From contig CABXQY010000001.1 of assembly GCA_902514485.1 (NCBI GenBank), forward strand, positions 1-60,726: 60,726 nucleotides of DNA, written 5' to 3'. The DNA is from an uncultured Candidatus Poseidoniales archaeon. Its GTDB lineage: Archaea > Thermoplasmatota > Poseidoniia > Poseidoniales > Thalassarchaeaceae. Numbering within the stretch: the stretch's first letter is position 1; the number at the start of each line of letters is the position of its first letter. The notes under the pieces were generated by a model. The model was not told the DNA's origin. It saw nothing but the letters and a program-made list of their open reading frames with translations, and did not search any database. Positions 6,602-40,900 of the stretch are shown here, in pieces. The position numbers were made by a program, and so were the translations under genes.

Positions 6602-7558
6602 ATGAGGAAATTTGTTTATTTTGTTGTGCTTATATTTTTATTTTCCAATTCTGCTATGCTTACCTATGCACAGGAACCAGAGTTAGGTAATTGGGAGCTA
6701 GGGATAAAATATATCGCAGACGATGAAGGTAAAGCATTTGTTCTAAATGAAAATGGAGAACGAGTAATACAATTCTATGTCCATAATACTGAAATGTTTG
6801 AAGTTGAAATAAGTTTTGAATATGAGCTGCCTTTTGAAGGACTTGCGAATGGACCAGAATCAGAAAAAATACAGGCAGGAGATAATGAAACATTCAACCT
6901 CCTTATAGAGGATATAGATGTTTTCGATTTTGCAGCCATGTCTAAGGAAGAAATGAAAATTACAGCGACTTTAGTATCAAGGGCTGGGATCGCAGTGGTT
7001 ATTCCTGAAAATCAAGAGGCAGTAGCAGATATTGAGATTCCGACAATACATTCAATCACAGTAGATATAGCAGATCCTGCGGGAGCAATGAACGCTGGGA
7101 CCGATATGGTCCTGAGAGTTACTGTGACTAATGATGGAAATATAAAAGATAAAGTCGGAGAAATTGATTTGTCAGATAATTGTCCATTAATGACATTAGA
7201 TAATGGATTAGATAAGTTACTTGTAACAGATCTTGAGATAGGGCAATCGGCAAATGCAGACTTGAAAATAACTGCATCAGATAGTCATCCAAGGAAGAAT
7301 TGTAAATTAGAGGTCGTAATATACTCTAATGGGGCGATGAATACAGGGAACTCAAGAATATCAGAGGATGAAACCTCAATTACTGTGGAACCTCCACTTG
7401 CTAAACCTGTAGATGATCAAGATGATGATGATGATGAAGGCAGTGTTTCAGAAGTGGTAGATTCTAGTCTTCCGGCTCCAGGAATAGGTATAATTCTACT
7501 ATCTTCAATCATGGCTCTATTTTATGCAGGAATAAATAGTAAGAAAAGATACAATTAA
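6602..7558 (+). CDS. Secreted acidic protein with a C-terminal membrane anchor; function unknown (CARDB-like beta domain is possible)
   Basis: Signal peptide MRKFVYFVVLIFLFSNSAMLTYAQE. It has a poly-Asp linker (DDQDDDDDEG) followed by PAPGIGIILLSSIMALFYAGINSKKRYN. The ATG lies 1 nt after the stop of the preceding gene. Confidence 0.55.
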   Translation: MRKFVYFVVLIFLFSNSAMLTYAQEPELGNWELGIKYIADDEGKAFVLNENGERVIQFYVHNTEMFEVEISFEYELPFEGLANGPESEKIQAGDNETFNLLIEDIDVFDFAAMSKEEMKITATLVSRAGIAVVIPENQEAVADIEIPTIHSITVDIADPAGAMNAGTDMVLRVTVTNDGNIKDKVGEIDLSDNCPLMTLDNGLDKLLVTDLEIGQSANADLKITASDSHPRKNCKLEVVIYSNGAMNTGNSRISEDETSITVEPPLAKPVDDQDDDDDEGSVSEVVDSSLPAPGIGIILLSSIMALFYAGINSKKRYN

Positions 7559-7723
7559 TCTAAAAAATGAGTCACTATAGCAGTGCTAAAAATACACTTC
7601 GGATAATATAAACAAGTTGTTGACCTGAACTAATGGCAGCAACATATAACTGTCATTCATCAGTGGGTTGAGTTACTGTCAGCGTTTGCTATGTTCTATA
7701 TTAGAAAAAAGGATTGATTTATT

Positions 7724-9319
7724 GTGGCCGAAGAAAATGAAAATAATCTCGATTTTAATACAGTAGTGATAGGCTCTATAGCCGTAACTGTTGTACTTCT
7801 TTTACTAGCACCAATGATTATGGTTATCGGGAAAGACACCTCATATTCAGCCTATGAATCTGATGATTTAGCACAACTTAGTGAGATGAGATCGGACATG
7901 TCAGACCCTACTGGACTTCCAGATAGTTACTTCATTGCAAACACAATGTCAACTCCAATGCTAGTTAATGACTGGAAGGATCCTCATCGTACAATGTTAG
8001 TGATTGTTTCACCTGAGAAACCAATAGATGAAACAGCAGCAGATGCAATTTATGACTTTGTTACTGAGAAAGGAGGAAAGGTGATAATTGCAGCAGATAA
8101 TACCAATGCGAATCGATTAGCTTCAAAATTCGGAGTATCATATTTCGATTCGCCACTATTAGATCAAAATCAGCATTGGCTAGAATATAACGAAGATGGG
8201 ACAACTGCGCTACCTGTATGGCAGAATGTTTGGAGTGTTGCCAGTGTTGAGAACGATGTTAATGAAATGGAAGCAGGTGCTGCTAGGAAAGGTTGTTCAG
8301 AGTTTCAAATTTCAAATAATGATCCTAAGTCCTGTAGAATACCCGTCATGTTCCGTTCCCCTACTGGAATAAGATTTGAACCAACATCTGAGGACTTACC
8401 ACAACAAAACCCAGATAATCAGAGACAAGTGAGTGTTCTCGCATCAGCATCCTCATCAGCATTCATAGACATTGTAGGGGATGGAGATTCTAGTAATCCT
8501 GCAAACCCTGCACCGGGAGATTTATCTTTAATGATACGTGTAGATTACCCTAATATTCCTGTTTACGATAAAGTGACTGGAAAGGGCGGATTTAGTGACT
8601 TGGAAGAAATAAAAGTAACTGGTAGTATTGTATTCGTTTCCGATGATGAGGCTTTTTCAAATAGACTATGGGATATATCCACAGCTGCTGAGACAGGAAT
8701 GAGAAGTTCTTGTGAAGGAGTTGTAGAATCAAAATGTTGGATGAATGAAATTAACGACAACAATGACTGGAATGGTAATAGTGTATATTTCCAGATGCTA
8801 ATACATTCAATGATGGAATTTGACAATACTCAACTTTCTAGCCAGATTAGACAAGACACTAGTAATTTCCAAATTGTTTTCGATGAAAGCAGACATGTAA
8901 CTGGTACTATATCCGCACCATTCGTAGCCGCTATGTCTACAGTTGTTTTGCTTACATCTAATACATTCCTTAAATGGCTAGTAGTTCTTAATGTAGGTTT
9001 GCTGCTATTGGTATCAATGATGGTCATTCCTGAGAAAGAAAATTGGAGACATGTATTTGATCTAACTCGATTTAATCAAAGACCAAAAAAGTTGGATTCG
9101 AGTACATACAAACTAAGAGTCAAGCAGGCACTATTTACTAAAGTCAGAGTACATCATGACCTGACTCGTGACCAAATGGCTTCAAAACCCCCTGCAGAAG
9201 TCCAAGCAATGATAGGCGACCCTAGGCTAGTCGAACTAGCCTACAGCCAAACACGTACATACTCACCCCAAGAACTAAGGCAACTTATGATAGCAATTAG
9301 AAAATGGGGTAAGAATTAG
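7724..9319 (+). CDS. Membrane protein of the MoxR-operon-associated type (DUF4350-like, tentative)
   Basis: It has an N-terminal TM, a large extracytoplasmic domain, a second TM pair and a basic C-terminal tail. It lies immediately upstream of MoxR and DUF58, as in many archaeal MoxR modules. Confidence 0.45.
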   Translation: MAEENENNLDFNTVVIGSIAVTVVLLLLAPMIMVIGKDTSYSAYESDDLAQLSEMRSDMSDPTGLPDSYFIANTMSTPMLVNDWKDPHRTMLVIVSPEKPIDETAADAIYDFVTEKGGKVIIAADNTNANRLASKFGVSYFDSPLLDQNQHWLEYNEDGTTALPVWQNVWSVASVENDVNEMEAGAARKGCSEFQISNNDPKSCRIPVMFRSPTGIRFEPTSEDLPQQNPDNQRQVSVLASASSSAFIDIVGDGDSSNPANPAPGDLSLMIRVDYPNIPVYDKVTGKGGFSDLEEIKVTGSIVFVSDDEAFSNRLWDISTAAETGMRSSCEGVVESKCWMNEINDNNDWNGNSVYFQMLIHSMMEFDNTQLSSQIRQDTSNFQIVFDESRHVTGTISAPFVAAMSTVVLLTSNTFLKWLVVLNVGLLLLVSMMVIPEKENWRHVFDLTRFNQRPKKLDSSTYKLRVKQALFTKVRVHHDLTRDQMASKPPAEVQAMIGDPRLVELAYSQTRTYSPQELRQLMIAIRKWGKN

Positions 9320-22565: not shown

Positions 22566-22650
22566 TGGTGCAGGGGACAGGATTTGAACCTGCGAAGCAC
22601 TACGCACTGGGACCTAAACCCAGCCCCTTTGACCACTCGGGTACCCCTGC
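22566..22650 (-). tRNA. tRNA-Leu (anticodon UAG), class II long variable arm, encoded CCA
   Basis: The reverse complement GCAGGGGTACCCGAGTGGTCAAAGGGGCTGGGTTTAGGTCCCAGTGCGTAGTGCTTCGCAGGTTCAAATCCTGTCCCCTGCACCA folds as a cloverleaf. It has a 7-bp acceptor stem, anticodon loop TT-TAG-GT and T-loop TTCAAAT. Confidence 0.9.
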
Positions 22651-22743
22651 TTGGTTCTGCGGGAGAGCATTTGAGTCAAGAATGCAACGGATGGCGTCTT
22701 CTCATACCCAAGAGGTCTTAACGAGGAGTTAAAGCGACTGAAA

Positions 22744-23766
22744 TTGAGTGGTACTATGGCTCGCATAGGTATAATCGGTTTGGGTAATTGGGGAACAGCA
22801 CTTGCGAAAGTATGGTGTGAAGATGGACATAATGTAATGGGATGGACCATTGAGCAAGAAGTATATGAGTCAATAATGACTGAAAACATCAATAAAAAAT
22901 ATCTACCGCACACAAAGATTCCAGGATTACAAGCTACTATGCAAATAGAAGATATCACTACAGAATGTGAGATTATTGTCTTAGCGGTCCCTAGTGGCAT
23001 AATTCTAGGAGTTGTTGACCAAATAATTCCATATTTACGGCCATCACATTTACTAATAGATTTAGCCAAAGGATTAGCTCCTGAAGAAGAAGGAGGTTCA
23101 GGCATAATATCTAAAGCAATCACAAAAAGATTAGAAGATGCAAAGAAATCTAATCCGTTAGTTGTAATGACCGGCCCTACAATTGCTCCGGAGGTTGCAA
23201 GAGGTGTGATGACTACTGCTCTAGTGGCTTGCCATGATAGGTCGATTGCAGAAAGAATAGCTGGAAGGCTTTCTACCAATACATTAGTACTAACTCCAGC
23301 AGATGACCCAGAGGGAGCAGAATTATGGGGGGCATTCAAAAATACGGTCGCACTTGCTTGCGGTCTAGTTGATGGTCTTAGAAATAGTATAGGAGGAGAT
23401 AATCTGAAGGCCGCATTAGTTCTAGCAGGATTCAGTGAAGGGATTAGGCTACTGAATGCAATGGGGGCAGAACCTACAACTGCATTCGGACCCGCAGGAT
23501 TGGGAGATCTATATGTCACTGCAACTAGCCCAAGAAGTCGAAATAGAACTTTAGGTGAAATGTTGGGCTATGGAAAATCATTAGAAGAAGCTCTAGATGA
23601 AATGCATATGGTTGCAGAAGGTGTTAGAGCGACGAGAATGTTTGTAAAAATCGCCCCTAAATTAAATATAGAAATACCTTTCTTATCGTCGTTAAGTAAA
23701 TTACTAGACGGAGAAATTCCTGTCGAAGATGCCGTTCGTGCAATGGTTGCTTCGTATCAAAATTAA
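22744..23766 (+). CDS. gpsA: NAD(P)H-dependent sn-glycerol-3-phosphate dehydrogenase
   Basis: Rossmann start MARIGIIGLGNWGTALA, then GPTIAPEVARG and ALACGLVDGL blocks typical of GpsA. The likely true start is ATG 22756. Confidence 0.9.
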   Translation: MSGTMARIGIIGLGNWGTALAKVWCEDGHNVMGWTIEQEVYESIMTENINKKYLPHTKIPGLQATMQIEDITTECEIIVLAVPSGIILGVVDQIIPYLRPSHLLIDLAKGLAPEEEGGSGIISKAITKRLEDAKKSNPLVVMTGPTIAPEVARGVMTTALVACHDRSIAERIAGRLSTNTLVLTPADDPEGAELWGAFKNTVALACGLVDGLRNSIGGDNLKAALVLAGFSEGIRLLNAMGAEPTTAFGPAGLGDLYVTATSPRSRNRTLGEMLGYGKSLEEALDEMHMVAEGVRATRMFVKIAPKLNIEIPFLSSLSKLLDGEIPVEDAVRAMVASYQN

Positions 23767-23786
23767 TAATCAAACAGAAAATAATA

Positions 23787-24374
23787 ATGGAGAAATCTAT
23801 GAAAAATTCAGGTCACAGATTAGGGGCATCAGGGACTAATTTGGAAAATACTATTCAAGGATTGAGGAATTCAATAGATAATTTAGATGAAAAGAAATTT
23901 AGATACTGGGAGTTTGACATTAGAGAATCAATTGACGGAGTTGTTTTTGTATTTCATGATGATTTAATAAATCTAAATGGAGAAATAATAGAAATATCAA
24001 AAATGACTTTTTCAGAAATCAAAGATGCTGGTAAAACTTTAGATATATCGATACCTACTTTCGAGGAAGTAGTGATTGAATTAGAAAATCGTAAAGAAAA
24101 AGTAATGGTAGAAATAAAAGAGATTTTTTCAGATCAGGCTAGAAATGAAATTATTAATAGAGTTTCAGAATTAGAAAATTGGAAAATTATGGCTACACCT
24201 GAACGTTTCGAGAAATCATTTCCCAAAGAATCGAGAGCTTTTTGGCGAAAAGAAATTAAAGAATTAGAAATTAAATTTGTGAGAGTTGGTAGACATAGGG
24301 TTGAACTTTTTAAAGCATCAGGATCTTATTGGAGATGGAAAATGGCAAAACCAAAATGGCTATTTGGATTCTGA
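23787..24374 (+). CDS. Short glycerophosphodiester phosphodiesterase (GDPD)-like protein
   Basis: GDPD catalytic pattern GHRLG...ENT...WEFDIRESIDGVVFVFHDD (HR, E, E/D, HD). At 195 aa it is shorter than typical GDPDs. Confidence 0.6.
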   Translation: MEKSMKNSGHRLGASGTNLENTIQGLRNSIDNLDEKKFRYWEFDIRESIDGVVFVFHDDLINLNGEIIEISKMTFSEIKDAGKTLDISIPTFEEVVIELENRKEKVMVEIKEIFSDQARNEIINRVSELENWKIMATPERFEKSFPKESRAFWRKEIKELEIKFVRVGRHRVELFKASGSYWRWKMAKPKWLFGF

Positions 24375-24444: not shown

Positions 24445-25515
24445 ATGTTATTATTCGGTAAAGGTATGAAGGTAGCTACGGTTACAGACTGGGCAGTAAA
24501 AAATAAGGCAATATTGATGGTAGGTGTTCTACTATGTGCAGGGACTATATACATGGTTTTTGATGTCAATTATAAGGAATGTGACGATCAAGAGAATTGT
24601 CTTATTGTTGCTTTTGAAGTACAGGATACTTACCTTATTTGGGATAAAAACCCACAACATCTAGCCGACAAACTTAGTACACTTACAGGAATGGATGTAG
24701 AGATATATCCAGTAACTGATTCGGGTGCTGCAATTGAAGCCGTCAGACTAGGTAATGCAGATATTGCATTCATGGATGGTGCAGCGGCATGGTTAGCATG
24801 GGAAGTATACGGATTAGATGTCTTGGCTGCTGAAGAGAAAGCAGATGGTAGAGTATACTACAATGCAACTGCATGGGTAAAAGCAGACTCGGACATGGCG
24901 GAAGCTTACCTCGATGATGATGATACTACAGACCCATTTGCACTAATGGAAGGAAAAATCTCTTGCCATACAGGATGGCTAAAAAGTGCAGGAATGCTCA
25001 TCCCTATGGGTTATTTGATTGGTAATGGATATGCAGAAGTTGTAGGTGATGAAAATGAAATTGAGTCTCTAAGAGATACAGTGTATGGTTTCTTCTCAGA
25101 TGATTCTAGTATCCCTGAGGGAGGAACGCCTTACTCATCCTACAAAGGAGCACTTAGGTGCCTATCTGATGGAAAGGGAGATGTGGCACTAGCTAAAGAT
25201 TCAGTAGTAAATTCATACTGTACTGGAGAAGATCGCTACGATTGGTGCTTAGATATTGATGAATATGTAATGTTACCTGCATTTGGGCAAGCTCCCAGCC
25301 ACCCTGCCATGTATAATTCAGAAGTGATGGATGAAGAAACCGTTATTATTGTTCAAGAAGGATTGGCAAAACTTGGAGATGATGATGAAGGAAGAGAAAT
25401 CCTCAATGACTTATTGAATACAGATGGAATGGTTGTTGCTAACTCCGAAGATCACTTGGGGACTTACGCTGCAGCTATATCCAATGTACCTGGAATTCAG
25501 GCTTATTTTGAATAA
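24445..25515 (+). CDS. Single-lobe transferrin-like substrate-binding protein, membrane- or lipid-anchored
   Basis: Blocks match transferrin lobes: NADIAFMDGAAAW, RVYYNATAWVKADSD, GKISCHTGWLKSAGMLIPMGYL, YSSYKGALRCLSDGKGDVALAKDSVV, DWCLDIDEY and APSHPAMY. It has an N-terminal hydrophobic anchor. Confidence 0.75.
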   Translation: MLLFGKGMKVATVTDWAVKNKAILMVGVLLCAGTIYMVFDVNYKECDDQENCLIVAFEVQDTYLIWDKNPQHLADKLSTLTGMDVEIYPVTDSGAAIEAVRLGNADIAFMDGAAAWLAWEVYGLDVLAAEEKADGRVYYNATAWVKADSDMAEAYLDDDDTTDPFALMEGKISCHTGWLKSAGMLIPMGYLIGNGYAEVVGDENEIESLRDTVYGFFSDDSSIPEGGTPYSSYKGALRCLSDGKGDVALAKDSVVNSYCTGEDRYDWCLDIDEYVMLPAFGQAPSHPAMYNSEVMDEETVIIVQEGLAKLGDDDEGREILNDLLNTDGMVVANSEDHLGTYAAAISNVPGIQAYFE

Positions 25516-25554: not shown

Positions 25555-26742
25555 ATGAAGTATTTTGCTATATTTGTTCTAATAATTCTTTGTTCAGGAT
25601 TGACGGGGTGTATTGATTCTGAGGACGACTTTGAATGGCCAGAACCAACAGAATTTAATTGCGAATTATCCCTAGACTTAAATCTAGAATGTAAATTGTA
25701 TATGGAAGGATTCGAAACTCCACATCACTCAATTTCCAATCCTGAAAATGAGGAAATATGGATTATTTATCTTAACGGATTTGTTAAGTCATGGGATGGA
25801 GAGGAACTGGAAGAAATCGCCGACTTAAGTTCATTTGTGAATCGCTGCCACATGGAACAGGGGCTTCTAGGAATGGCCTTCGATGAAGATTTCAATACTT
25901 CAAAAACAGTACTGATATCATATATAGAGGAAGGTGATTGTGATGGCCCTAATGATTCAGATTTGATATTAGCATCAATAAAATTGGGGGAAAGTGGATT
26001 ACTAGATCCTTCTACTATTTCTTCTTTAAGAACCGTAGAACAACCTTACAGGAATCATAATGGAGGACACCTGATTAGTATTGGAGATAATCAATATCTT
26101 TGGGGCATAGGTGACGGAGGTAGCGCAAATGATCCTGAAAATAATGGCCAAAATAGGAGTAACTCACTTGGAACTATAAACCTTTTTTCATACGAAAATG
26201 GGAAAATTTCTCCCGTACTTAACAACTCAGAAGATGACCCATATATCTTACATCATGGTTTGAGAAATCCATGGAGATTTTCACTTGGTGAAGATAATAT
26301 GATCTGGATTGGAGATGTTGGACAAAATTGTTGGGAAGAAATAAATTTAGTTCCATTGTTTGAAAGAAAGAATCTTGGTTGGTCATTAAAAGAAGGTTTT
26401 CAATATTTTGACGAGGATGGAGATTGTTATGAAGAAGATGACCACGAGGACCATAGTGATGATGACCTGACTTACCCAGTTGTTGCTTATGGTCATGAAA
26501 ATGGAAATTGTTCAATCACAGGAGGATTTTGGATGGATTGGGGGCCGGAATCACTACAAAATGGATATTTATATGGAGATTTTTGCAGTGGGGAGATTTG
26601 GTTATTGAAAGAAACTGATGACGGGAAATGGAAAGAAAACTATGTCGGTTCAAGTGGTGGAATGATTGTCGGGTTTGGTAGAGGAATTGCTGATGAAATA
26701 TTAATTTTTCATTGGACTGGCGATATAGTACTAATTGAATAA
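25555..26742 (+). CDS. PQQ-dependent sugar (glucose/sorbosone) dehydrogenase-like beta-propeller lipoprotein
   Basis: Signal plus lipobox LTGC. Family blocks GLLGMAFD, YRNHNGGHLISIGDN, GIGDGG, HGLRNPWRFS and GDVGQNCWEEIN are present. Confidence 0.75.
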   Translation: MKYFAIFVLIILCSGLTGCIDSEDDFEWPEPTEFNCELSLDLNLECKLYMEGFETPHHSISNPENEEIWIIYLNGFVKSWDGEELEEIADLSSFVNRCHMEQGLLGMAFDEDFNTSKTVLISYIEEGDCDGPNDSDLILASIKLGESGLLDPSTISSLRTVEQPYRNHNGGHLISIGDNQYLWGIGDGGSANDPENNGQNRSNSLGTINLFSYENGKISPVLNNSEDDPYILHHGLRNPWRFSLGEDNMIWIGDVGQNCWEEINLVPLFERKNLGWSLKEGFQYFDEDGDCYEEDDHEDHSDDDLTYPVVAYGHENGNCSITGGFWMDWGPESLQNGYLYGDFCSGEIWLLKETDDGKWKENYVGSSGGMIVGFGRGIADEILIFHWTGDIVLIE

Positions 26743-26752
26743 TAAAAAGACA

Positions 26753-27736
26753 TCATTTATTCACACTAGATGGTAAAAAGATACTTTTCCAAGATGGGCG
26801 ATTAAGCCCAATATCTTCTGTGAAATATGAACGTGCCTTAATTGAAATAAAATCAATGATTAAAACTACTACGAAGATAATAATTAGGTATGCAATTACT
26901 TTATCATATTGTAAAAATTTCAAATATAAATTAATGTAGTATCCAATTCCTCCAGCACCTACTATTCCAATCACAGTACCATGCCTGAAATTATATTCAA
27001 ACATGAAAATTACTTGAGAGATTAAATCATTTGCACATTCAGGAATAACTACCTTAAATGCTATTTCAAACCTTGTAAGGCCCATTGCTTCAGCAGCATC
27101 GAGAGGAGTTTTAGTCATACCTTCTATTGCTTCATATTGAAGTTTACCGAGATACCCGACTGTATAGACAGTCATAGCTAAGACTCCTGCTAAAGGTCCA
27201 TATCCAACTAGTATTACAAAGAATATTGCCCAAATAATACTTGGTAAACTTCTGAACGCAGCCAGTAAGAATCTAGGTAAATATGACAAAGTAGAAACTA
27301 GAAGAAAAATGATTCCACCATCGTTCCATCTCGTCAAATATTCGTAGAAAAATGATGCATAGTCCAAATTACGTGAAGCTAATATTGAAATTGGAAGGGA
27401 TATAATCGCCCCAAATACTGTTGATACAAATGCAATTTTCATTGTCTCGACCATCCCGATCCAGGCAGTTGAGCAGGTAAAATCCATGAAAGTCGGGTAA
27501 ACAGTGCATACAGGATAAGCTCGCGGTTCAAGGACACTCCAATCAGGAGGCCATAATGATTCATTAAAGAATGTCACAAGATTACCAAGTCCTTGAGATG
27601 CCCTGCCCCAGTCATTAACCATTCCATCAAAAACAACGATGCTGAATAAGAATATTAGAATAAAAATTCCAAGCCATGAGCGTAGTGGACCAAAGAAAGT
27701 ATCTAAGAACTTCCTTAAAGGATTAAAATCATTCAT
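26753..27736 (-). CDS. ABC importer permease, PhnE family
   Basis: The block EAAEAMGLTRFEIAFKVVIPE...RHGTVIGIVGAGGIGYYI matches the PhnE signature (VGAGGIG). Its start overlaps the ATPase stop by 4 nt. Confidence 0.85.
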   Translation of the reverse strand: MNDFNPLRKFLDTFFGPLRSWLGIFILIFLFSIVVFDGMVNDWGRASQGLGNLVTFFNESLWPPDWSVLEPRAYPVCTVYPTFMDFTCSTAWIGMVETMKIAFVSTVFGAIISLPISILASRNLDYASFFYEYLTRWNDGGIIFLLVSTLSYLPRFLLAAFRSLPSIIWAIFFVILVGYGPLAGVLAMTVYTVGYLGKLQYEAIEGMTKTPLDAAEAMGLTRFEIAFKVVIPECANDLISQVIFMFEYNFRHGTVIGIVGAGGIGYYINLYLKFLQYDKVIAYLIIIFVVVLIIDFISIKARSYFTEDIGLNRPSWKSIFLPSSVNK

Positions 27737-28482
27737 AATTTAACCTCCATAGCGGTAGGTTCGGTGATAAATGGATTAGCTCTTCCATCATCAATTACTA
27801 GTAACCTATCTGCCATCATTTTTGCACGTGTAATATCATGCTCTACAACAAGAAGTGCAGAATTACTAGATTTGACATATTTTGTGACCTCCTTAAGGAC
27901 CATACCAACTGTTTTTTCATCTAGTTCACTTAGGAACTCATCAGCCATTATCAGTTCAGGACATTGAGCCAATGTTCTAGCAGTAGCAACTCTTCTCTGT
28001 TGACCTCCTGAAAGCCGCCTTATTGGTTCACTAATTTTATCTTCAAGGCCCATGGAGTTAATTGCCTGAATAGCTTTTTTCTTTGCAAATGAGGACGGTA
28101 AACAAACACCAATAAAAGGTATTGGAGTATTATGACCTGCATTTGCACCTAACATTACATTATGTAATACGCTTGCATGTCTAACTAACCCCAAACTTTG
28201 TGGCACATATCCTAACTTTCCTCTTTTAGGACTGTCAGGAATAGTTTTACCACATACTTCAATACTACCTGAGATAGGACTTATCAGACCTGCAATTGTT
28301 TTCAACAAAGTCGACTTACCGACTCCAGAAGGCCCGGCAATTGCAACAATTTCTCCAGGGAATATTTCTAGATTTGGTATCTGAACTAAAGGCTTATCAT
28401 GCTTATATCCTATCGAAACATCATTTAATCGTATAATTGGTTCAATATTCTTAGGAATATTTGTCATAGACTCACCCCCCAC
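27733..28482 (-). CDS. ABC importer ATP-binding protein, PhnC family
   Basis: Walker A GPSGVGKST, signature LSGGQQRRVATAR and Walker B LIMADE are present. The likely true start is ATG 28467, preceded by GGGGGGTGAG. Confidence 0.85.
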   Translation of the reverse strand: MGGESMTNIPKNIEPIIRLNDVSIGYKHDKPLVQIPNLEIFPGEIVAIAGPSGVGKSTLLKTIAGLISPISGSIEVCGKTIPDSPKRGKLGYVPQSLGLVRHASVLHNVMLGANAGHNTPIPFIGVCLPSSFAKKKAIQAINSMGLEDKISEPIRRLSGGQQRRVATARTLAQCPELIMADEFLSELDEKTVGMVLKEVTKYVKSSNSALLVVEHDITRAKMMADRLLVIDDGRANPFITEPTAMEVKL

Positions 28483-28496
28483 ACCCGATTACTAAG

Positions 28497-28512
28497 TTTA
28501 GGCGCCCCTAAT
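28497..28512. promoter_or_regulatory. Palindromic operator-like site TTTAGG-cgcc-CCTAAt (copy D, one mismatch)
   Basis: Located between the stop of the bilobal binding-protein gene (28570) and the ATPase start (28467/28482). Confidence 0.55.
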
Positions 28513-28569: not shown

Positions 28570-30669
28570 TTAGTTTGCAAAGATATCAGAATAATATGAA
28601 GAAATATCAGGAATAATTGCTATGAATGACGAATACTGCCCTAGATGTTCTTGAGATGTCGCTCTGGTTAATCCGGATGTACCTAATATGTTATTCATTA
28701 TCTCAGAACCACACATATTTTTCTGAGATGTTTCATCAATTACATGTACTGAAATGTCATAACAACCTGTATATACCGATCCTCGTGTACTGAAATTTTC
28801 CAAATACATCTCATAGTTAAGTGAGATTAAAGCATTCAAGACCGCTGTTCTTGTCTGTATATCCAGCAACTCAGGATTATAGATTACAGAATCGCTTGGG
28901 ATAGGGGCAATAGCAGGGAGGGAGGTATACTCTTCAATATCTAAACACCAATTCATATTTTCTGAAATAACAACATTGTCACAATACATATTAACAGTAT
29001 TTTCTTCTAAAAATACAATATCTCCTCCGCCCTCAGAAAGACATCTTAGTGCTCCTGAATCGCCAAAATACGTATCATTTTGATTAGGTATTGATGAATT
29101 ATAATTGAAGAAAGAATAAATTATTTCTGATAAATAATCTATATCATTACTTTGATTTAATTCGAGATAATTATTTTTCGCTAAATAACTGATTGGAAGC
29201 ATCATACTTTCCACATCTGAAGAATCAGAATGGCAGGATGTTTTTCCTTCCAACAAATCAAAAGGATTAGTCAAAGGATCATTGTCTAAATGACTTATTG
29301 CGATTGAACTATTCGAATTAACCCAAGCTAAAGTATCGGAATATGTTCTACTATCTTCCATTTCTACTGCCGCCATTACTGCCAATTCATATTGTTTCCA
29401 TCCAACCCATGCCAACTCAGAATTAACAATTGCAATATCGGCATGACCATCTCTTAAACTGTTAAGTAATTCGTTTTGAGAATTAACAAAAAATATTTCC
29501 ACATCTATTTTTAATTTCTGAGATAGAAAATCGGCTAAGAGTTCCGGATTTTTATCTACATCATCAGATAATTTACCTAAATCATAAGCAATCTTAATTT
29601 GATTAATATCTGGGGAAACAGAAGTATTCAAGGAGAACTTATCGTTATAATAAGCAGAGATACCCGGTATATTGGAAATTAATGATGAATAACTACCCAA
29701 GTGTACTGAAGTGTTTGTTGCAATGAATCCAGGCGTATTAAGGATATTCTCGAGAATATTAGTCGCTTCGGGATCACTGCTCATTTCAACTAAAATATTT
29801 GTAACTTTACTTGTAATTTCTGAATCTAAAAAATTAGGGTTATACATTACTGGATGGCTAGGTGATTGCCCAAAAGCGGGTAATGCAATATACTCCTCAA
29901 TGTCAAGACACCATTCTTGATTGAGAGAAGAAATTTCATTATTACAAAGAATTTCTACGCTATTTTCTTCTAAAAAGGCAACATCTCCTTTTCCTTCCGA
30001 TAAACATTTCAAAGCACCCGAATAACCATAATATGGAGTTCCAGTGTCTGGAATTGAAGAATTTGGATTAAAAAATCCATGTATAGTATTTCTTATGGTC
30101 TCGACATCATTAGGATCTCCTATAATATTTGCATAACCTAGACCAATTAGGTAACCCATGGGAAGAAGCATACCCACTGATTTTAGCCATCCTGTATGGC
30201 AGGATGTTTTACCAGATAAAAGTGCAAACGGATCAGAATAGGGGTTATCGTCGAGATAAGCACTAGCAACGTCACTATCTGACTTTACCCATGCATTAGC
30301 ATTGTAATATGTTCTTCCATCGACATTAAGGTCTGCAGCTAAAACTTCTAATTGATATTGTTGCCAACCAACCCATGCGGCTCCAGCATCCATTAATGCA
30401 ATATCTGCATTGCCAAACCTCAGAGCTTCCACCATAGCACCCTCCGAGTCAACGCTGAACAGAGAAACATCATAATTTAATTTCTCAGAAAGATAATCTG
30501 CAAAAATCTGAGGGTTAGAATCGATGATGTCGATATTATCTTTGATCTCATATGCAATTACTAGAGTGCCAAGACTGCCTTCTTCACTATCATTACCGAT
30601 ACAACCTGAAACATAAGTCATTATCAAGATTGAAGTAATTAGAATAGAGACTAGCTTACCATTGGCCAT
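28570..30669 (-). CDS. Bilobal (tandem two-lobe) transferrin-like substrate-binding lipoprotein
   Basis: Signal plus lipobox VSGC. Lobe 1 (about aa 35-342) carries NADIALMDAGAAW, RTYYNANAWVKSDSD, GKTSCHTGWLKSVGMLLPMGYL, YYGYSGALKCLSEGKGDVAFLEE, EWCLDIEEY and SPSHPVMY. Lobe 2 (about aa 355-699) repeats the same block order with substitutions. GGAGTG lies 7 nt upstream of the ATG. Confidence 0.75.
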   Translation of the reverse strand: MANGKLVSILITSILIMTYVSGCIGNDSEEGSLGTLVIAYEIKDNIDIIDSNPQIFADYLSEKLNYDVSLFSVDSEGAMVEALRFGNADIALMDAGAAWVGWQQYQLEVLAADLNVDGRTYYNANAWVKSDSDVASAYLDDNPYSDPFALLSGKTSCHTGWLKSVGMLLPMGYLIGLGYANIIGDPNDVETIRNTIHGFFNPNSSIPDTGTPYYGYSGALKCLSEGKGDVAFLEENSVEILCNNEISSLNQEWCLDIEEYIALPAFGQSPSHPVMYNPNFLDSEITSKVTNILVEMSSDPEATNILENILNTPGFIATNTSVHLGSYSSLISNIPGISAYYNDKFSLNTSVSPDINQIKIAYDLGKLSDDVDKNPELLADFLSQKLKIDVEIFFVNSQNELLNSLRDGHADIAIVNSELAWVGWKQYELAVMAAVEMEDSRTYSDTLAWVNSNSSIAISHLDNDPLTNPFDLLEGKTSCHSDSSDVESMMLPISYLAKNNYLELNQSNDIDYLSEIIYSFFNYNSSIPNQNDTYFGDSGALRCLSEGGGDIVFLEENTVNMYCDNVVISENMNWCLDIEEYTSLPAIAPIPSDSVIYNPELLDIQTRTAVLNALISLNYEMYLENFSTRGSVYTGCYDISVHVIDETSQKNMCGSEIMNNILGTSGLTRATSQEHLGQYSSFIAIIPDISSYYSDIFAN

Positions 30670-30970: not shown

Positions 30971-32620
30971 TTATTGGAGTGTTCCAATGTCTTCCGCAGT
31001 TATTCCTAGCATATCCCAAGCTGGTTGTAGATGTGCGCGAACAGCGGCCTGATAGTCAGTTCCTGCTACTGGTACATTACTGAAATCATAGATTCCATTA
31101 ATTCCAGTTGTTCCAAATCCATCGAAGTGTGTAAATGCCGAACACTCTGCTTCAGTCATATCTGCATCAGTTGTATGGGACACCATATTATAACATCCAG
31201 TAAACATAGTAGCGCCATAATTCACATACCAACCATAAGATTCGCATGTAGTCTGATCTACTGCTGTGTCCCATGAGTGAGATACGCTGTTGTAGCAACC
31301 GTCTTGCCCAGCAACTGTGACATAATCTTCAACCCAAATATATGATGTGCATGTAGCATTATCATCGCTTGATGTTTCATGAGATACCATGTTGTAACAT
31401 CCAGTGAAAGTAGTGGAACCCCATGAAGCATTATCATAGTAATCCCAAGACTCGCAGATTGATTGATTCCATGAACTGTTCATACCATGAGATACACTGT
31501 TGTAACAACCTGTGTAAGTTTGTTCACCATAATTCTCTAAGAACATGTATCCAAGACATGAGGTCTCGTCACTGTCTCCAGAAACTTCGTGAATATTCAT
31601 ATTGTAGCAAATATCCTCACCATCACCCATATCATAATCAGTCATGTAGATGTATCCTGCACATTCATCAGCTGCCGCACCACTAACAGTCATAGTAACA
31701 CCATTGTAACAATCGTCACCAGGTGATGGATTCGCTTCAGCAACGTATTTTTCAATTACTCTCCAGAAAGAATATCCCTCTGCTTGATGTGTTTGAGCTT
31801 TTTCTACTGTATCATCAGTATTCATCTTGTGAGCATAACGTATTGTTGCTTGTGAGTAAATAATTACTAGATTCTTTACTATATCGTCTCTTGCAGCAGT
31901 TGCTCCAGCGAGATCTTCGGCTTGTAGTGCAGCAAGGCCCTCATTCATTGCTAAAAGAATTGCTGCATTTGCTATAGCAGTACCATCTGCATTTGCAGTA
32001 GCATAGTTACCTGCTCTCTTGTCTCCAGTAGCATACGGAGAGCATGAAGCATACTCATCTAGACCGTGATAAAACGCCCATCCTTCATCCCATGCGTGTT
32101 GTGCATCATCGGTGCCAAAGTTTCCAGCTTCTGCCTTGTTTATGGCTGCATTTAATTCATGAATTGCATATGCAACCATTATCTGATTTTGGACGCCTTT
32201 CTCAACAGCTTGCTCTCGAACACTATCTGAAGTTCCTTCAAAAATACCAGTTCCATCCAGTGCTGACATCAAGTAGTCATCTAAAGGTGAATCAGTACCG
32301 TAGAAGGTATCTAATCCATGTTGCTTACCAGTAGCATCTGCAAATCCTTGCAATGTTCTGTATGAACCATCGCTCTTTTCTGCATGCTTACCATTCATGT
32401 AAATATCTTTTACCCCATCCCAATCATGCTCTTCCGCTAGATCTTTGATATCACAAACATCTTCAACTAACATTCTATGATTATCAACATTTGAGGCGTA
32501 TTCATATCCGCCGTCTATTTCGTCAAAGTTATTATCAGTATCATCCGATAAACAGCCAGCAAAAGCTGCGGCTAACATACTTAATGTCATCATTATAGCA
32601 ATTATTTTATCATTTTTCAT
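30971..32620 (-). CDS. Secreted lipoprotein: unknown helical N-domain plus six tandem CYN.VSH...C modules
   Basis: Signal plus lipobox FAGC. GGAG lies upstream of the ATG. aa 304-496 contain six modules of about 30 aa, each with two Cys. Confidence 0.6.
   Translation of the reverse strand: MKNDKIIAIMMTLSMLAAAFAGCLSDDTDNNFDEIDGGYEYASNVDNHRMLVEDVCDIKDLAEEHDWDGVKDIYMNGKHAEKSDGSYRTLQGFADATGKQHGLDTFYGTDSPLDDYLMSALDGTGIFEGTSDSVREQAVEKGVQNQIMVAYAIHELNAAINKAEAGNFGTDDAQHAWDEGWAFYHGLDEYASCSPYATGDKRAGNYATANADGTAIANAAILLAMNEGLAALQAEDLAGATAARDDIVKNLVIIYSQATIRYAHKMNTDDTVEKAQTHQAEGYSFWRVIEKYVAEANPSPGDDCYNGVTMTVSGAAADECAGYIYMTDYDMGDGEDICYNMNIHEVSGDSDETSCLGYMFLENYGEQTYTGCYNSVSHGMNSSWNQSICESWDYYDNASWGSTTFTGCYNMVSHETSSDDNATCTSYIWVEDYVTVAGQDGCYNSVSHSWDTAVDQTTCESYGWYVNYGATMFTGCYNMVSHTTDADMTEAECSAFTHFDGFGTTGINGIYDFSNVPVAGTDYQAAVRAHLQPAWDMLGITAEDIGTLQ
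31133..31711 (-). repeat. Coding repeat: six modules of the form C-Y-N-x-[VNM]-[STI]-[HM]-x8-11-C-x-[SGA]-[YWF]
   Basis: The modules are CYNGVTMTVSGAAADECAGY, CYNMNIHEVSGDSDETSCLGY, CYNSVSHGMNSSWNQSICESW, CYNMVSHETSSDDNATCTSY, CYNSVSHSWDTAVDQTTCESY and CYNMVSHTTDADMTEAECSAF. Confidence 0.8.
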
Positions 32621-32746: not shown

Positions 32747-34765
32747 GTGAGTATACCTTCTCGATATATTGTGAGTTATTCTGGACGAACGAAAATTTTG
32801 ACGGCAATCTGCGTTATTCTTATGTTTTCGATGTTTTTCCCTCTGGAAAATGAAGATAAAGTACTAGATACAGAGATAATAACTAAAAATCAACTGGGCG
32901 GCGGTGGAGGAAGTATAGAAGATAGATGCAGTTCTATTACTTTCGAAGATATTCTGCCTTATACTCATGCACATTTCGATATTGTGGTCAATGATGACTG
33001 GGATTCTGCAGAGGTAGAAGCGAGAGCATGGATAAATGGTAGCAGTGTTGATTTGTTAAGAGAAAAACTCGACTCATATTTGGAAGAACTATATCCGAGC
33101 GGAGGAGATGGTTGGATCTCAACTGATGAAAAATCTGCTGTTGAGGCAGTTGCTTCAGAATGCATAGAATATGCAATGACTCGAATAGGATTGAGAGAGT
33201 CTTCCCCTCACAGAGGGGGCGTGGGATTAGATTGGAAGAATGCTACTTGGCAAGATAATGGCGTTATAATAGAAGAGTGGAATTTAGTCCCTTCTAATCA
33301 TGCAGATATAAGGGATTGTACTGCTATAGGATCTAGTAATGATTGTGAAGAAGTTCCTGTTTATCCCAATTCAGAAAGAGATTGTAATACCTTGGTTGAA
33401 ACTTCTGAGGGAGTAGATGAATGCAGACTTGAACTATGGATGAATGCTACGATGGTAATACCCAATATGGCCCAAGGAGAGGAGTTTACTCTCGCATTTA
33501 ATGCATCTAATATGACCAATGCAGTTCTAGACTTTACATTCCCTAGTAATCCTGATTTAAGATTAGATATGTGGGAAGAATGCGAAGGAAGAGATGTTGA
33601 ATTCGAGCCTATGACTCATGAAGATGCGCCGTTGAGAGGAACATGTGTCGGAGATGGCTCATCCACATATACATTTGAAAATAATGAAGATATCAAGTAT
33701 ATTCTATCCCCACATCGAAGTAGAGATGTTTGGCCTAGTGGAGAGGATATTTTTGCAGATTTTACAATTGCGCCGATACCTATTGACGAACCACCGGTTT
33801 GGACAGAAAATGCACCACTTGATGAATCATGGTTTCCTTCTCTAGAAAGTGGGGAAATAGTATGGGCAGAATGGGATAGCGTTTCTTCATGGTTTGTCGA
33901 TGAAAAACCACTTACTCAATTAGAGGTTAATTGTGAAGCTGATGAATCAGCAAATATATTCCAACGATCGGATAAATCATTCTCAGGAATTATACCAAGC
34001 GATGGAGTCGTAAGTGTTACTTGTGAAGCAATTGATGTCGCAGGACAGAGTTCAGGAAATAGAACTTGGCACCTTGGAATCCCAATTTCTGTATCGACGA
34101 CATCTAATATTCTCCAAAGTCCACACCCGATAAAGATTGAATTGAATCAAGGATGGCCGGAATTAAGTATAGACTATAGTTTCACACAAACTCAAAATAT
34201 TAATTTAGCTACAATTGATACAGTTACGATAATATCAGAAACGACATTAATGGTTGAATCAATGGGAATGAATCCAGGATTGGTTGATCTTTGGGTTGGA
34301 GTTTACGGAGAAAATGTATATCCCGTTGACAAGATATTTAGTCTAAATATAATTAAAGAGAGTTCACCACCTCTGATTTCTGTTTCCGAATATGGATGGG
34401 AATTAGATACTTGGAAGGCACAGGGTCAATTTAGTGACCCAGATGGAGAAGAAGTCGTATTTTCATTATCCATAGATAATATATCAGCAGGTAGTATATC
34501 TGTTTCGGGAGATTCTTGGAGTACTCCGATAATAAATTTCGGATTATGGGATGAAGGAATCCACGAAGTAAAAGTTATTGGTTGCGATATTTCATTGAAA
34601 TGTAACGAGGTTATTATGATGGTAAATAATTCTCATTTATTCAATACAATTGCTCCTCTTCCCGTCGAAAATCCTAAGGAAACTGGTTTTTTGCCCGGGC
34701 CGAGTATTGTTTTAACTATTTTAGCTCTAACTGTCGGTCTCATATACTCGACCCGACGCGAATGA
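32747..34765 (+). CDS. Large secreted surface protein with a C-terminal membrane anchor; function unknown
   Basis: GTG start and N-terminal signal anchor. The protein is acidic, has many N-x-S/T sequons and includes a HYR-like stretch (VSVTCEAIDVAGQSS). The C-terminus is GFLPGPSIVLTILALTVGLIYSTRRE. Confidence 0.55.
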   Translation: MSIPSRYIVSYSGRTKILTAICVILMFSMFFPLENEDKVLDTEIITKNQLGGGGGSIEDRCSSITFEDILPYTHAHFDIVVNDDWDSAEVEARAWINGSSVDLLREKLDSYLEELYPSGGDGWISTDEKSAVEAVASECIEYAMTRIGLRESSPHRGGVGLDWKNATWQDNGVIIEEWNLVPSNHADIRDCTAIGSSNDCEEVPVYPNSERDCNTLVETSEGVDECRLELWMNATMVIPNMAQGEEFTLAFNASNMTNAVLDFTFPSNPDLRLDMWEECEGRDVEFEPMTHEDAPLRGTCVGDGSSTYTFENNEDIKYILSPHRSRDVWPSGEDIFADFTIAPIPIDEPPVWTENAPLDESWFPSLESGEIVWAEWDSVSSWFVDEKPLTQLEVNCEADESANIFQRSDKSFSGIIPSDGVVSVTCEAIDVAGQSSGNRTWHLGIPISVSTTSNILQSPHPIKIELNQGWPELSIDYSFTQTQNINLATIDTVTIISETTLMVESMGMNPGLVDLWVGVYGENVYPVDKIFSLNIIKESSPPLISVSEYGWELDTWKAQGQFSDPDGEEVVFSLSIDNISAGSISVSGDSWSTPIINFGLWDEGIHEVKVIGCDISLKCNEVIMMVNNSHLFNTIAPLPVENPKETGFLPGPSIVLTILALTVGLIYSTRRE

Positions 34766-37990: not shown

Positions 37991-40900
37991 TTAATTTCCG
38001 CCTTTTTGTTGGGCATAGTAAGATGCATAGTATTGCTCAGCATACTGCCTAGCTGTTTGCTCATCATAACCGGATGCAACCATCTGTTGGACATAAGCTT
38101 CCACTGGATCCATCTGCTCGACACCACCAAACTGCTCTACTGCATCGTCATCACTATCTTTACCACCTCTGCCTCGGGCTACAAGAGTGACTCCAACTAT
38201 AGCTAGAATAGCAATTAAACCACCTATTCCTATGAAAAGCGGATTAATACCACCCGATTCAGAGCCACCACATCCTGAAGATGTAGGGTCAAGAACGCAA
38301 GCATCCTTAGGCAGTAAATTGATTACAATTTCTTCAGTCAATACATATCTACTCCCATCTCCCTCAGTTATTCTGAAGTAAAGAGTTGCACTTACACCAC
38401 TAATTGAATAAAGTTCAGATATGTCTAAAGTCATTGAGAAACCATCTCCATCACCTAAATTACTAGATACATTGTATTTACCTATTGACTTTTGAGTGAT
38501 TTTCTGAGTAGGAGTGTAATCCAAGATTAATGGATCTAACGATACCTCTATCATTACATCACTATTTTCAGCACCACCAACGATATTACCTACAATTGTC
38601 ACATCATCAGAGGATTGTGAGTCACTAGGTCTTGGCGAAGTGAAAGACCATACTGGTTGAGCATCGCCATCATCTTCTCCAACTATTATGAAATACATAC
38701 GATATTTGTTTTGAGTTTGCTTACCTGCTTTATCATAAACAATTAACTCGACTCTTACGTCTTTCTCAATTGTTGCACTTGTAGTGATATTTCGGAAAGT
38801 ATAACTCCACTCATCGGTTACTGCTGCAGGATTTTGCCAAACGTGTTGTTCGTCATTGAATTCACCAACTGGCATATCATTAATCACTCTCCATTCATAC
38901 AGAGCTATTCCTGATTCTCCTTCAGGTGCATCAGGATCAGTACTATTCTCACCTGTAAATTGAATTGTTGTCTCTCCCGTCTCAGATAGTCTCACTCTGT
39001 AAACCGGCCAATCAACTCCTGCGATTGGTTTAGTACCTGCAGGAGTGATATATTCAGAAGTCAAATCATCATGGATAATAGTTGCAGCAGAAATTGGGTA
39101 GAAATCATCTGCAAGTGTATCATTAGTGATTAGGCGAATATAAGTAATTCTAGTATGACCTGCGTCATCATGGAGGTAAAGTGTCAATAACCACTCTGCA
39201 CCAATTCGACAAGGTTCATCTACGCCCGCTGCACAAAATGACCCCATAGTTGGTATCGAAGGACTCAACTGATTAGTGTGACTTACCAAACCGGACTCAA
39301 GTACAGCTCCGTCCCAACCAGTGACTGAATCATTGTTACCTGATTCTAAATCCCAGTCTGCAGTTAGGCCAGGGATAGTTGATACATAATTGAATTCTAA
39401 ATCTGCATTGCTCTTAATATATTTATCACGATATGCAGCGGTAGTCGGATTGATATCAACGGATTCACCGTTAATTATCAGATCGAAATCTGTACCTGCA
39501 ATACCGAAGTCAATAGGATATGGAGTTAAGTGATAAGAAAGCATATTGGAAAGTAGAGGTATATTCTCCCCACCATAGGATTCAGAAACACTAGGGTTCT
39601 CTACATCAATAGTCGTAACAATTAATCCACCTGCACCTTTATTGCAAAGAGACATTAGAGAATGCCCTTGATCAGTATCTCTGAGTAATGTGTGGAAAGT
39701 CCCTCCAGTAACACTAATTCGACCACCACATGTGGCAGGTATCTGATTAGTTTGGACTTGGGATGCAACATCTATTCCAGCTGTTGCAACATAATTACCT
39801 GCATGAATTCCAGAAAATGTTACTTTATCAATACCTAACAGTATAGGATGATATGGGTCATCAATCGAGAGATCATCATAATTAATTCTGTTATCAGTTG
39901 AGAAATTATACTGATTTCTATCTTTTATTGCCATATCGAAAATTAATCTACCTGGGTCATATTCATTCTGATATGGACCCAAATGCATCTGTACAGTACC
40001 TCCATTGACCATGAAATTTTCTAGAACATCAACAACACTCAGACCATCGGTATCTCTAGTTGTATCCATTATTTCATAATAATCGCCATAAACGACGTTA
40101 TAATCAGTCTGCCAAGGTAGTAATACCTTATTGTAATGTTCAATCCAATCAGGTGTTGCGTATGTATTCCAGTCATCTACTCTTAATTGAGTGTAGGTCA
40201 TTTCCATAGCTTCAAGATCTTTCTTCACTTGCTGAAGTCGATTCTGATCAGTAGGATTAGACAATATTGCTACATCTACCTGATCATAGAACTCTATTTC
40301 AAAGAATCTCTCATTGCCTGAACTATTACCATCATCGGTGAAAGTTGCAAAGAAACTAATATTGTATTTATGTTCATCATACCAATTAGAATAAGGCGCC
40401 GTCCAATTAGCCCATGACCTCTCATGAGGGACTAAATCAAATGGCCCATTGTCCGAATTCTCCTCATAGACTGTTTGCCCCGTTTCTAAATCCACAATTC
40501 TCATAGTCAATTGATATTCTGCTTCAATAACTCCGTTCAATAATGGTAATACAAAGTCATGTGATGACGCACCATAAGCACCTTGCTGGTCCTTATTTGT
40601 GGTGTAAACACATGCATAAGTTATATCTGTAGTACAGTCCAAAATGTCAGGTTGCATCAAAGTGATATCAGCACTAGCAATACTAAACATTATTGTAGTA
40701 AAGTTATTTGCTAAGTTGACTTCATCTTCATTATACCACTTATCTAGAGGGTCAGTATTATCAAAAATTGTCTTTACATCAATTCGATAAATTCCACTCT
40801 GGAAATCATGATTTGCCACGTTTATTAATTGTCTCTCGGAGGCATCCATACCATTGACATCTACGGTGTAAGTGCCATCATCTTCGAAAGTAAATTCCTC

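Follow-up and report, generated by a model that had tools for sequence, protein, structure and literature searches.

The question raised by the gene at positions 24445-25515 of contig CABXQY010000001.1, from an uncultured Candidatus Poseidoniales archaeon, is whether the encoded 356-residue protein functions in the uptake of phosphonate or of iron. The whole stretch analyzed, 60,726 nucleotides in length, is referred to as the window. Genomic studies of marine group II (MGII) archaea treat the locus as one for phosphonate transport (PMC6336850). The results described here point instead, with a probability of about 0.7, to a membrane-anchored Fe(III)-binding substrate-binding protein (SBP) of the transferrin type that would feed a PhnC/PhnE-type ATP-binding cassette (ABC) importer and belong to a low-iron regulon. 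The six sequence blocks on which the initial annotation based its description of a single-lobe transferrin-like protein were all recovered from the open reading frame (ORF) at the positions assigned to them.

Similarity to transferrins and PhnD proteins

The Pfam Transferrin model (PF00405) matched the 356-residue protein with 60.5 bits (E=2e-16, gathering cut-off 20.3). The 60 best matches listed from a phmmer search of PDB sequences were all transferrins, with ovotransferrin at the top (E=3.2e-25). Sequence similarity to transferrins at this level is not attributable to chance. The protein was not confined to the PhnD family, and the NCBIfam PhnD models scored under their cut-offs (TIGR01098, 43.4 versus 112 bits; TIGR03431, 32 versus 261 bits), results that uphold the affinity to transferrin initially proposed. 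Scanning the protein with the Pfam and NCBIfam models gave no match to an FbpA-type family. E. coli PhnD scored 7.7 bits against a hidden Markov model (HMM) of the archaeal family and, among 982 plasmid records encoding a PhnD homolog, a single one (1/982) matched the 356-residue protein, that being a haloarchaeal ortholog. Databases already flag PF00405 on sequences of this kind, some of which are named 'PhnD/SsuA/transferrin family'.

Scores with the Pfam Phosphonate-bd (PF12974) and Transferrin models formed a gradient extending from E. coli PhnD (268 bits and no Transferrin match) through Nitrosopumilus protein P0224 (151 bits and none), Heimdallarchaeota protein P0191 (95 and 36 bits), the window protein (71 and 61 bits) and P0137 of an unknown single-lobe group (54 and 63 bits) to the single lobe of the ichthyosporean Abeoforma (47 and 113 bits). 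Since both models were passed, the window protein is placed between the transferrin and PhnD families. The alternative to an iron-binding role is a conventional PhnD-type protein of a PhnCDE transporter, binding phosphonate, phosphite or phosphate, with Tyr, His and Asp hydrogen-bonding the oxyanion. Consistent with this alternative, the Phosphonate-bd score of 70.6 bits is above the cut-off of 27; the failure of the NCBIfam models and the low score of E. coli PhnD against the family HMM speak against it.

Predicted iron and anion site

Residue equivalences were derived from HMMER alignments to ovotransferrin and to the N-lobe of human serotransferrin, the latter in agreement with all canonical residue numbers. 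The alignments placed D111, Y139, Y233 and H286 at the positions of the Fe(III) ligands Asp63, Tyr95, Tyr188 and His249, and T176, K180 and S181-A182-G183 at those of Thr120, Arg124 and the helix-5 N-terminus Ala126-Gly127 that form the synergistic-anion site. The assignments of D111, T176, K180, Y233 and H286 in the initial annotation were borne out, whereas that of Tyr138 to Tyr95 was off by one residue; the true match is the invariant Y139, and Y138 pairs with Phe94 and is Y, F, H or W across the family. Also as claimed, the cysteine of the CHTG motif has its partner, in that C174 and C239 aligned with Cys118 and Cys194 and are invariant, a predicted conserved disulfide pair. C268 aligned with Cys227, but the likely partner, C259, differs from human Cys241.

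The six site residues D-Y-T-K-Y-H were present in 84 of 85 single-lobe homologs (53-97% identity) drawn from the 120 closest cluster representatives, the exception having Gly at position 180. The ligand set, with Y139 in place of Tyr138, is complete, as first described, and conserved. Eukaryotic transferrin lobes, too, commonly have Lys at the position of Arg124.

An STS-H oxyanion-binding motif, together with tyrosines, is the defining feature of the PhnD family (Bisson 2017, PMC5700983). Positions of PhnD and transferrins were matched by a bridged multiple alignment, which revealed that the contact positions of PhnD are homologous to the ligand positions of transferrin. This homology of the two sites is in favor of an oxyanion binder; however, the STS-H motif is not present in the 356-residue protein, S-T-S being replaced by K180-S181-A182 and His157 by Tyr233, and wherever PhnD and transferrin differ at contact positions the protein has the transferrin residue (Table 1). 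The substitutes at the PhnD contacts are exactly the metal ligands of transferrin.

Predicted fold and membrane location

The AlphaFold model of the protein had a predicted local distance difference test score (pLDDT) of 88.2 and a predicted template modeling score (pTM) of 0.79. The top Foldseek matches of the model were transferrins (E=6e-15, probability 1.00, TM score about 0.5-0.6), consistent with a lobe of two alpha/beta subdomains typical of type II binding proteins. The ORF encodes one lobe only and not the two homologous lobes of the transferrin family. The claim of a membrane anchor is consistent with the N-terminal helix of the model, residues 21-39. The binding domain is expected to face outward because lysines precede this helix. 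In some orthologs a lipobox (LAGC) takes the place of the N-terminal anchor. An alternative start codon, M8, is the one found in most homologs.

An acidic insertion with the sequence A-Y-L-D-D-D-x-x-T-D-P-F (residues 155-165, window positions 24907-24939) was found in the Poseidoniales core clade and is absent in transferrins, PhnD and other single-lobe relatives. The insertion resembles a cation-binding loop.

A shared operator and its candidate regulator

The palindrome TTTAGG-N4-CCTAAA precedes the transferrin-like, ABC ATPase and Fea1 genes of the window (Table 1). With up to one mismatch, four copies were detected in the 60.7-kb window as opposed to 0.17 expected, a number reached in 0 of 100 shuffles, and all four lie inside the cluster containing these three genes. 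The core TTAGG-N4-CCTAA occurred 153 times in 83 Poseidoniales loci (1.08 Mb) versus about 1.1 expected from composition, and for 148 of the 153 copies a tracked gene of the cluster begins no more than 250 bp downstream (transferrin-like, 72; Fea1, 42; PhnC-like, 31; GDPD, 2; flavodoxin, 1). The genes for the transferrin-like protein, Fea1 and the ABC transporter make up the predicted regulon that the palindrome defines.

In a marine group III (MGIII) locus, L079, a gene encoding a DtxR-family repressor (7111-7770; Fe_dep_repress, Fe_dep_repr_C and FeoA domains) is divergent from the ortholog, and the 128-bp spacer between them (7771-7898) contains two perfect copies of the palindrome and one imperfect copy. 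A DtxR-family repressor gene also adjoins the ortholog in MGIII locus L072, and none was found in the flanks of the other 81 of the 83 loci. The L079 regulator contains a Cys-x-x-Glu-His motif, as is typically found in DtxR/IdeR proteins that respond to Fe. Both half-sites of the palindrome, TTAGG and CCTAA, match the outer pentamers of the DtxR/IdeR box, although the spacing differs.

A related arrangement was found in plasmid 2 of Natronococcus occultus SP4 (NC_019976.1, locus L085, 8081-11459), where genes encoding a DtxR-family repressor, the transferrin-like protein, an ABC ATPase and phnE follow in order. The transferrin-like gene of this haloarchaeon is frameshifted into two ORFs, either a pseudogene or the result of a sequencing error, and the encoded protein has Ser instead of the Asp ligand. 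No clear copy of the MGII palindrome was detected in the Natronococcus intergenic regions.

The gene cluster

The importer genes said in the initial annotation to adjoin the ORF were identified as encoding PhnC- and PhnE-type proteins. The minus-strand genes for the Fea1-family lipoprotein, a two-lobe paralog, the ATPase and the permease converge on the plus-strand transferrin-like ORF and the gene for a GSDH-family lipoprotein, which is possibly a redox or release partner.

Table 1. Positions in the window of the transferrin-like gene, its predicted site residues, neighboring genes and operator copies.
Feature	Position	Strand	Remarks
Single-lobe transferrin-like substrate-binding protein	24445..25515	+	356 aa; isoelectric point about 4.05
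N-terminal transmembrane anchor, residues 22-39	24508..24561	+	AlphaFold helix 21-39
Asp111 codon, equivalent to transferrin Asp63 (Fe ligand)	24775..24777	+	By alignment; Gly in PhnD, differs
Tyr139 codon, equivalent to transferrin Tyr95 (Fe ligand)	24859..24861	+	By alignment; Tyr93 in PhnD, shared
Thr176-Lys180 (T-G-W-L-K), equivalent to Thr120-Arg124 (synergistic-anion site)	24970..24984	+	Followed by Ser-Ala-Gly helix N-terminus; K180-S-A is S-T-S in PhnD, differs
Tyr233 codon, equivalent to transferrin Tyr188 (Fe ligand)	25141..25143	+	By alignment; His157 in PhnD, differs
His286 codon, equivalent to transferrin His249 (Fe ligand)	25300..25302	+	By alignment; Asp205 in PhnD, differs
GSDH-family beta-propeller lipoprotein	25555..26742	+	Directly downstream of the ORF; pyrroloquinoline quinone (PQQ)-type sugar dehydrogenase-like
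PhnE-type ABC permease	26753..27736	-	TIGR01097, 208 bits, cut-off 216.7
PhnC-type ABC ATPase	27733..28482	-	TIGR02315, 145 bits, cut-off 266
Two-lobe paralog, 699-aa lipoprotein	28570..30669	-	Full ligand set in lobe 1
Fea1-family lipoprotein ('low iron-inducible periplasmic protein')	30971..32620	-	PF07692, 89 bits
672-aa membrane-anchored surface protein	32747..34765	+	No known family; divergent from Fea1
Operator TTTAGGTTACCCTAAA	24419..24434		11 nt upstream of transferrin-like ATG
Operator copy TTTAGGCGCCCCTAAT	28497..28512		1 mismatch; 15 nt upstream of ATPase start
Operator copy TTTAGGTCGCCCTAAA	32638..32653		Upstream of Fea1
Operator copy TTTAGGTGAGCCTAAA	32681..32696		Divergent promoter region of Fea1 and 672-aa ORF

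Lobe 2 of the two-lobe paralog has lost all six site positions (N/S/S/D/D/D), and the joint loss is the pattern expected of one cooperative site that was abandoned. The loss recalls the inactive C-lobe of melanotransferrin. In another archaeal two-lobe relative (P0121) both sites are kept.

The Fea1-family lipoprotein, a member of the family of algal FEA1 and diatom phytotransferrin, contains, after the Fea1 domain, six Cys-rich repeats of ~30 residues with the motif C-Y-N-x-V-S-H...C. Comparison with the transferrin-like family by hhalign gave no detectable homology at the level of profiles (probability 1.5%, signal peptides only), and no relative was found among PDB sequences. The divergently encoded 672-residue protein contains cysteines and is hydrophobic at both termini, as in anchors, but is not matched by any Pfam model; it shares an operator region with the Fea1 gene and is a possible member of the regulon.

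Neighboring genes were counted in 48 loci of at least 12 kb. A GSDH-like gene was present in 37/48, a PhnC-like gene in 34/48, a PhnE-like gene in 28/48, a GDPD gene in 23/48, Fea1 in about 22/48, gpsA in 16/48 and flavodoxin in 10/48. In a more distant member of the family (L081), a single operon encodes the SBP, ATPase and permease, the stop codon of one gene overlapping the start codon of the next. In two Tara contigs (L082 and L083) the cluster is flanked by genes for Fea1, flavodoxin and the siderophore-type transport proteins Peripla_BP_2 and FecCD; in L082 the GSDH gene is followed by a 678-residue ORF that has no Pfam match.

The transferrin-like gene is immediately preceded by genes for GpsA, an NAD(P)-dependent glycerol-3-phosphate dehydrogenase of bacterial type, and for a glycerophosphodiesterase (GDPD) of short length (22744-24374, plus strand). 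A 301-residue ORF antisense to gpsA (22614-23519, minus strand) overlaps tRNA-Leu(TAG) (22566-22650, minus strand) and is probably spurious. Elsewhere, the window contains tRNA-Gln(CTG) (52324-52399, plus strand) and a giant ORF of 2167 residues (37991-44494, minus strand).

Oxyanion, iron or another metal

The gene neighborhood bears on the oxyanion alternative in both directions. The adjacent PhnC- and PhnE-type partners, the upstream GDPD gene, the source annotations that call the protein a phosphonate transporter component and reviews that count phosphonate transport as a core trait of MGII (PMC6336850) are all in agreement with a PhnD-type binder. On the other hand, no genes for carbon-phosphorus (C-P) lyase, phosphonatase or ptxD/htx were found among the scanned ORFs of the window, nor were genes for phosphonate, phosphite or hypophosphite catabolism (C-P lyase, ptxD, htxA) found in L081-L083, and the neighbors and type of regulator are iron- or metal-related. 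Combined with the missing STS-H motif, these results make an oxyanion ligand highly improbable.

The predicted functions of the neighbors (Fea1, flavodoxin and DtxR-family proteins) and the common operator favor iron. A second alternative is a transferrin-type site that binds another hard cation, such as Mn(III)/Mn(II), Al, Ti, V or Ga, or that binds Fe(III) together with phosphate. Transferrin sites are known to bind many tri- and tetravalent cations, and PDB entries of Al-, Cr- and Ti-transferrin were among the Foldseek matches of the model. Further consistent with another metal are the Mn sensors of the DtxR family, Lys in place of Arg at the anion site and the location of a basal Nitrosopumilus relative adjacent to the cobalt transporter genes cbtAB. 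However, Fea1 and flavodoxin mark iron limitation specifically, Lys at the anion position is shared with many eukaryotic transferrin lobes, and the MGIII regulator carries the motif typical of Fe-responsive proteins. Another cation or synergistic anion is considered improbable, if less so than an oxyanion.

Several results weigh against an Fe(III)-binding transferrin-type protein. The Phosphonate-bd score is slightly above that of Transferrin (70.6 versus 60.5 bits). AioX and PtxB of the PhnD family were matched by Foldseek with E about 1e-13, nearly a tie with transferrins, and therefore the fold alone cannot separate the two families. The four ligands are predicted to converge on one three-dimensional site by homology to solved transferrins, and the identity of the metal is likewise predicted from homology and context. 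The permease falls just short of an equivalog of PhnE, whose family is known to transport oxyanions, and the upstream GpsA and GDPD genes can be read as phosphorus-related. Two-lobe relatives P0122, P0123, P0126, P0128 and P0133 have partial ligand sets even in lobe 1, from which it follows that not every family member is able to bind iron in this way. Finally, no DtxR-family regulator was detected among the scanned ORFs of the window or by tblastn against the window, and regulators of that family include Mn sensors.

Nonetheless, the complete site, the ABC importer and the iron-repressor-type operator taken together lead to the conclusion that the 'phosphonate uptake' transporter is probably a high-affinity iron importer. 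In the proposed mechanism, an extracellular, membrane-anchored SBP built like one lobe of transferrin would capture Fe(III) with Asp111, Tyr139, Tyr233 and His286, and hold synergistic carbonate or a similar oxyanion with Thr176, Lys180 and the helix N-terminus Ser181-Ala182-Gly183. The lobe would then close around the metal and pass it to the adjacent PhnC/PhnE-type importer, with the two-lobe paralog and the Fea1 lipoprotein presumably working in the same pathway. A metal-dependent repressor of the DtxR family acting on TTTAGG-N4-CCTAAA would turn the system on when iron is scarce.

Distribution and origin

Homologs of the transferrin-like protein numbered 325 among 1.84 billion representatives (E<=0.001), and 452 matches were obtained in species-representative genomes. 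The family is small but ubiquitous in Poseidoniales and spans MGIIa, MGIIb and MGIII. An exact look-up of the window protein in the contig index gave no record. The best 80 loci of the 452 matches are on MGII or MGIII contigs, three of which bear bacterial labels of metagenome-assembled genomes (MAGs), namely Rhodobacteraceae (L003), Pedosphaera (L039) and Salinimicrobium (L073); the genes on these three are 58-88% identical to the archaeal gene, and the contigs are probably mis-binned Poseidoniales. The idea that the window itself is eukaryotic or contaminated was rejected based on a 97% identical gene in the Poseidoniales single-cell genome L023, and is also countered by the other genes of the window, which are typical archaeal housekeeping genes.

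Relatives with the Asp/Tyr/Thr/Tyr/His residues were identified in Nitrosopumilus, cultured species included, and in the Heimdallarchaeota MAG that encodes P0191; these 'phosphonate-binding' proteins are without the cysteines and without the Lys. In Nitrosopumilus adriaticus (CP011070.1, locus L090, 7001-9706) the operon adjoins cobalt transporter genes cbtA and cbtB. Searches with the Nitrosopumilus protein as query returned only near-identical Nitrosopumilus sequences.

Among eukaryotes, the nearest relatives are transferrins with several lobes from Ichthyosporea (Chromosphaera, Creolimax, Amoebidium, Ichthyophonus and Abeoforma) and a protein tagged 'Clim', which we take to be from Corallochytrium, and then a Bryopsis protein and metazoan-like lobes. 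The unicellular holozoan transferrins nearest to the archaeal family, with multiple lobes or one, are P0124, P0136, P0141, P0146, P0163, P0169 and P0138. The Chromosphaera protein P0124 has 5 lobes in 1894 residues and the Bryopsis protein P0156 has 7 lobes in 2619 residues, and the Abeoforma transferrin has just one lobe, anchored in the membrane at the C-terminus. The Cys259/Cys268 pair is common to the archaeal family and the ichthyosporean proteins.

A bootstrapped neighbor-joining (NJ) tree of 72 lobes was rooted on five genuine PhnD proteins. The transferrin-like sequences separated from the PhnD outgroups with 100% support. Support was 77% for the clade excluding basal Nitrosopumilus, P0232 and P0211, 68% for that excluding Heimdallarchaeota as well, 77% for the Poseidoniales core and 54% for a eukaryote clade, with 35-40% for the branching order that relates Poseidoniales to eukaryotes and to the unknown single-lobe group (P0137, P0139, P0140 and P0143). 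Archaeal two-lobe forms arose within the archaeal clade, and hence by independent duplications. The initial annotation offered either an ancestral state or a transfer. The tree places the prokaryotic forms as a grade below the eukaryotes and not inside them, and suits a prokaryotic origin better than transfer from a eukaryote to an archaeon without being decisive, support being weak at the decisive nodes.

Acquisition of the Poseidoniales gene from a eukaryote, either a holozoan or an alga, would make the gene uninformative regarding the ancestry of transferrin while leaving its function as proposed. Such an origin is suggested by the strong eukaryotic matches (Chromosphaera, E=4e-118; ichthyosporean lobes, 100-150 bits each), by the cysteine pair shared with ichthyosporean proteins and by the low bootstrap values at the decisive branching order. 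In contrast, the gene is part of an SBP-ATPase-permease operon that is natively prokaryotic and has an operator of archaeal type, and is spread over MGIIa, MGIIb and MGIII with the 452 matches mentioned above; the Pfam scores are continuous from PhnD through Nitrosopumilus, Heimdallarchaeota and MGII to eukaryotes; cysteine-less archaeal forms with the same ligands are basal (77%); and the eukaryotes form a clade of their own (54%) that does not enclose the archaeal sequences. A eukaryotic source of the gene is regarded as unlikely. The protein would rather be of prokaryotic stock, from a branch of the PhnD superfamily in which the metal site of transferrin was acquired, and be close kin of the lineage that led to eukaryotic transferrins.

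Comparison with known systems

The archaeal protein has in common with eukaryotic transferrins (the lobes of serotransferrin, ovotransferrin and lactoferrin) the type II binding-protein fold, the Asp/Tyr/Tyr/His positions, an anion site composed of Thr, Arg or Lys and a helix N-terminus, the motifs SCHTG and Y-x-G-A-x-x-C-L-x-x-G-x-G-D-V-A-F, and the equivalents of Cys118-Cys194. Eukaryotic transferrins are two-lobed with Cys-rich insertions, whereas the archaeal protein is one lobe without those insertions and is unlike them in the N-terminal membrane anchor, Lys for Arg124 and the acidic insertion LDDDxxTDPF. Eukaryotic transferrins use receptor-mediated endocytosis, whereas the archaeal protein is encoded with an ABC importer.

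With PhnD, PtxB, HtxB and AioX (PF12974), binders of phosphonate, phosphite and arsenite, the protein shares the superfamily, the fold and the type of ABC partner. It differs in the replaced STS-H motif, the iron-related context and the lack of phosphonate-catabolic genes nearby.

The type II proteins FbpA, FutA and HitA hold naked Fe(III) with Tyr, Tyr, His and a synergistic anion and feed an ABC importer. The working principle proposed for the archaeal protein is like that of these 'bacterial transferrins' of FbpABC importers; however, FbpA belongs to another sequence family, has Glu and not Asp, typically binds phosphate as the anion and is partnered with an FbpB-type permease in contrast to the PhnE-type permease here. 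Unlike FbpA, the archaeal protein falls by sequence in the transferrin family proper.

Phytotransferrin (ISIP2a/FEA1) is a surface protein of marine plankton that captures Fe(III) in a carbonate-dependent manner, as summarized in PMC7676907, and the same source relays a proposal that phytotransferrin and transferrin have a common origin in phosphonate-binding proteins (McQuaid 2018 via PMC7676907). A member of the phytotransferrin family (Fea1, PF07692) is encoded in the same cluster and predicted regulon as the transferrin-like gene. Phytotransferrins act by endocytosis in eukaryotes, whereas the archaeal transferrin-like protein is paired with an ABC importer.

Implications

No description of an archaeal or prokaryotic transferrin of this kind was found in the searchable literature, although the phylogeny of McQuaid 2018 may already include such sequences.

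A broader scenario is put forward tentatively, at somewhat less than even odds. Transferrin would not be a eukaryotic invention; an archaeal branch of PhnD-type proteins would have evolved the Asp/Tyr/Tyr/His plus carbonate site for Fe(III) at a time when its members continued to supply ABC importers controlled by DtxR-type regulators. The branch would survive in Nitrosopumilus, Heimdallarchaeota, haloarchaea and the disulfide-bearing Poseidoniales, and a gene of this stock would have entered an early holozoan or an earlier eukaryote, there to become transferrin. The 'phosphonate transporters' of MGII and marine ammonia-oxidizing archaea would then be high-affinity importers of inorganic iron.

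The descent of transferrin from periplasmic binding proteins has long been assumed. With the gene described here, textbook eukaryotic transferrin gains a concrete prokaryotic relative that is still accompanied by an ABC importer and, in some loci, a candidate regulator, and the assumed descent becomes directly testable. Transferrin-like and phytotransferrin-family genes are found side by side in one organism, in a compact archaeal low-iron regulon predicted to unite, by way of the palindromic operator, the genes for the transferrin-like protein, the ABC importer and Fea1, which could serve as a marker of iron stress in metatranscriptomes. Should Fe(III) be the ligand of the protein, the way in which phosphorus and iron use is modeled for the abundant MGII archaea of the surface ocean would need correcting, and the phosphonate trait of Nitrosopumilus may need the same re-reading.

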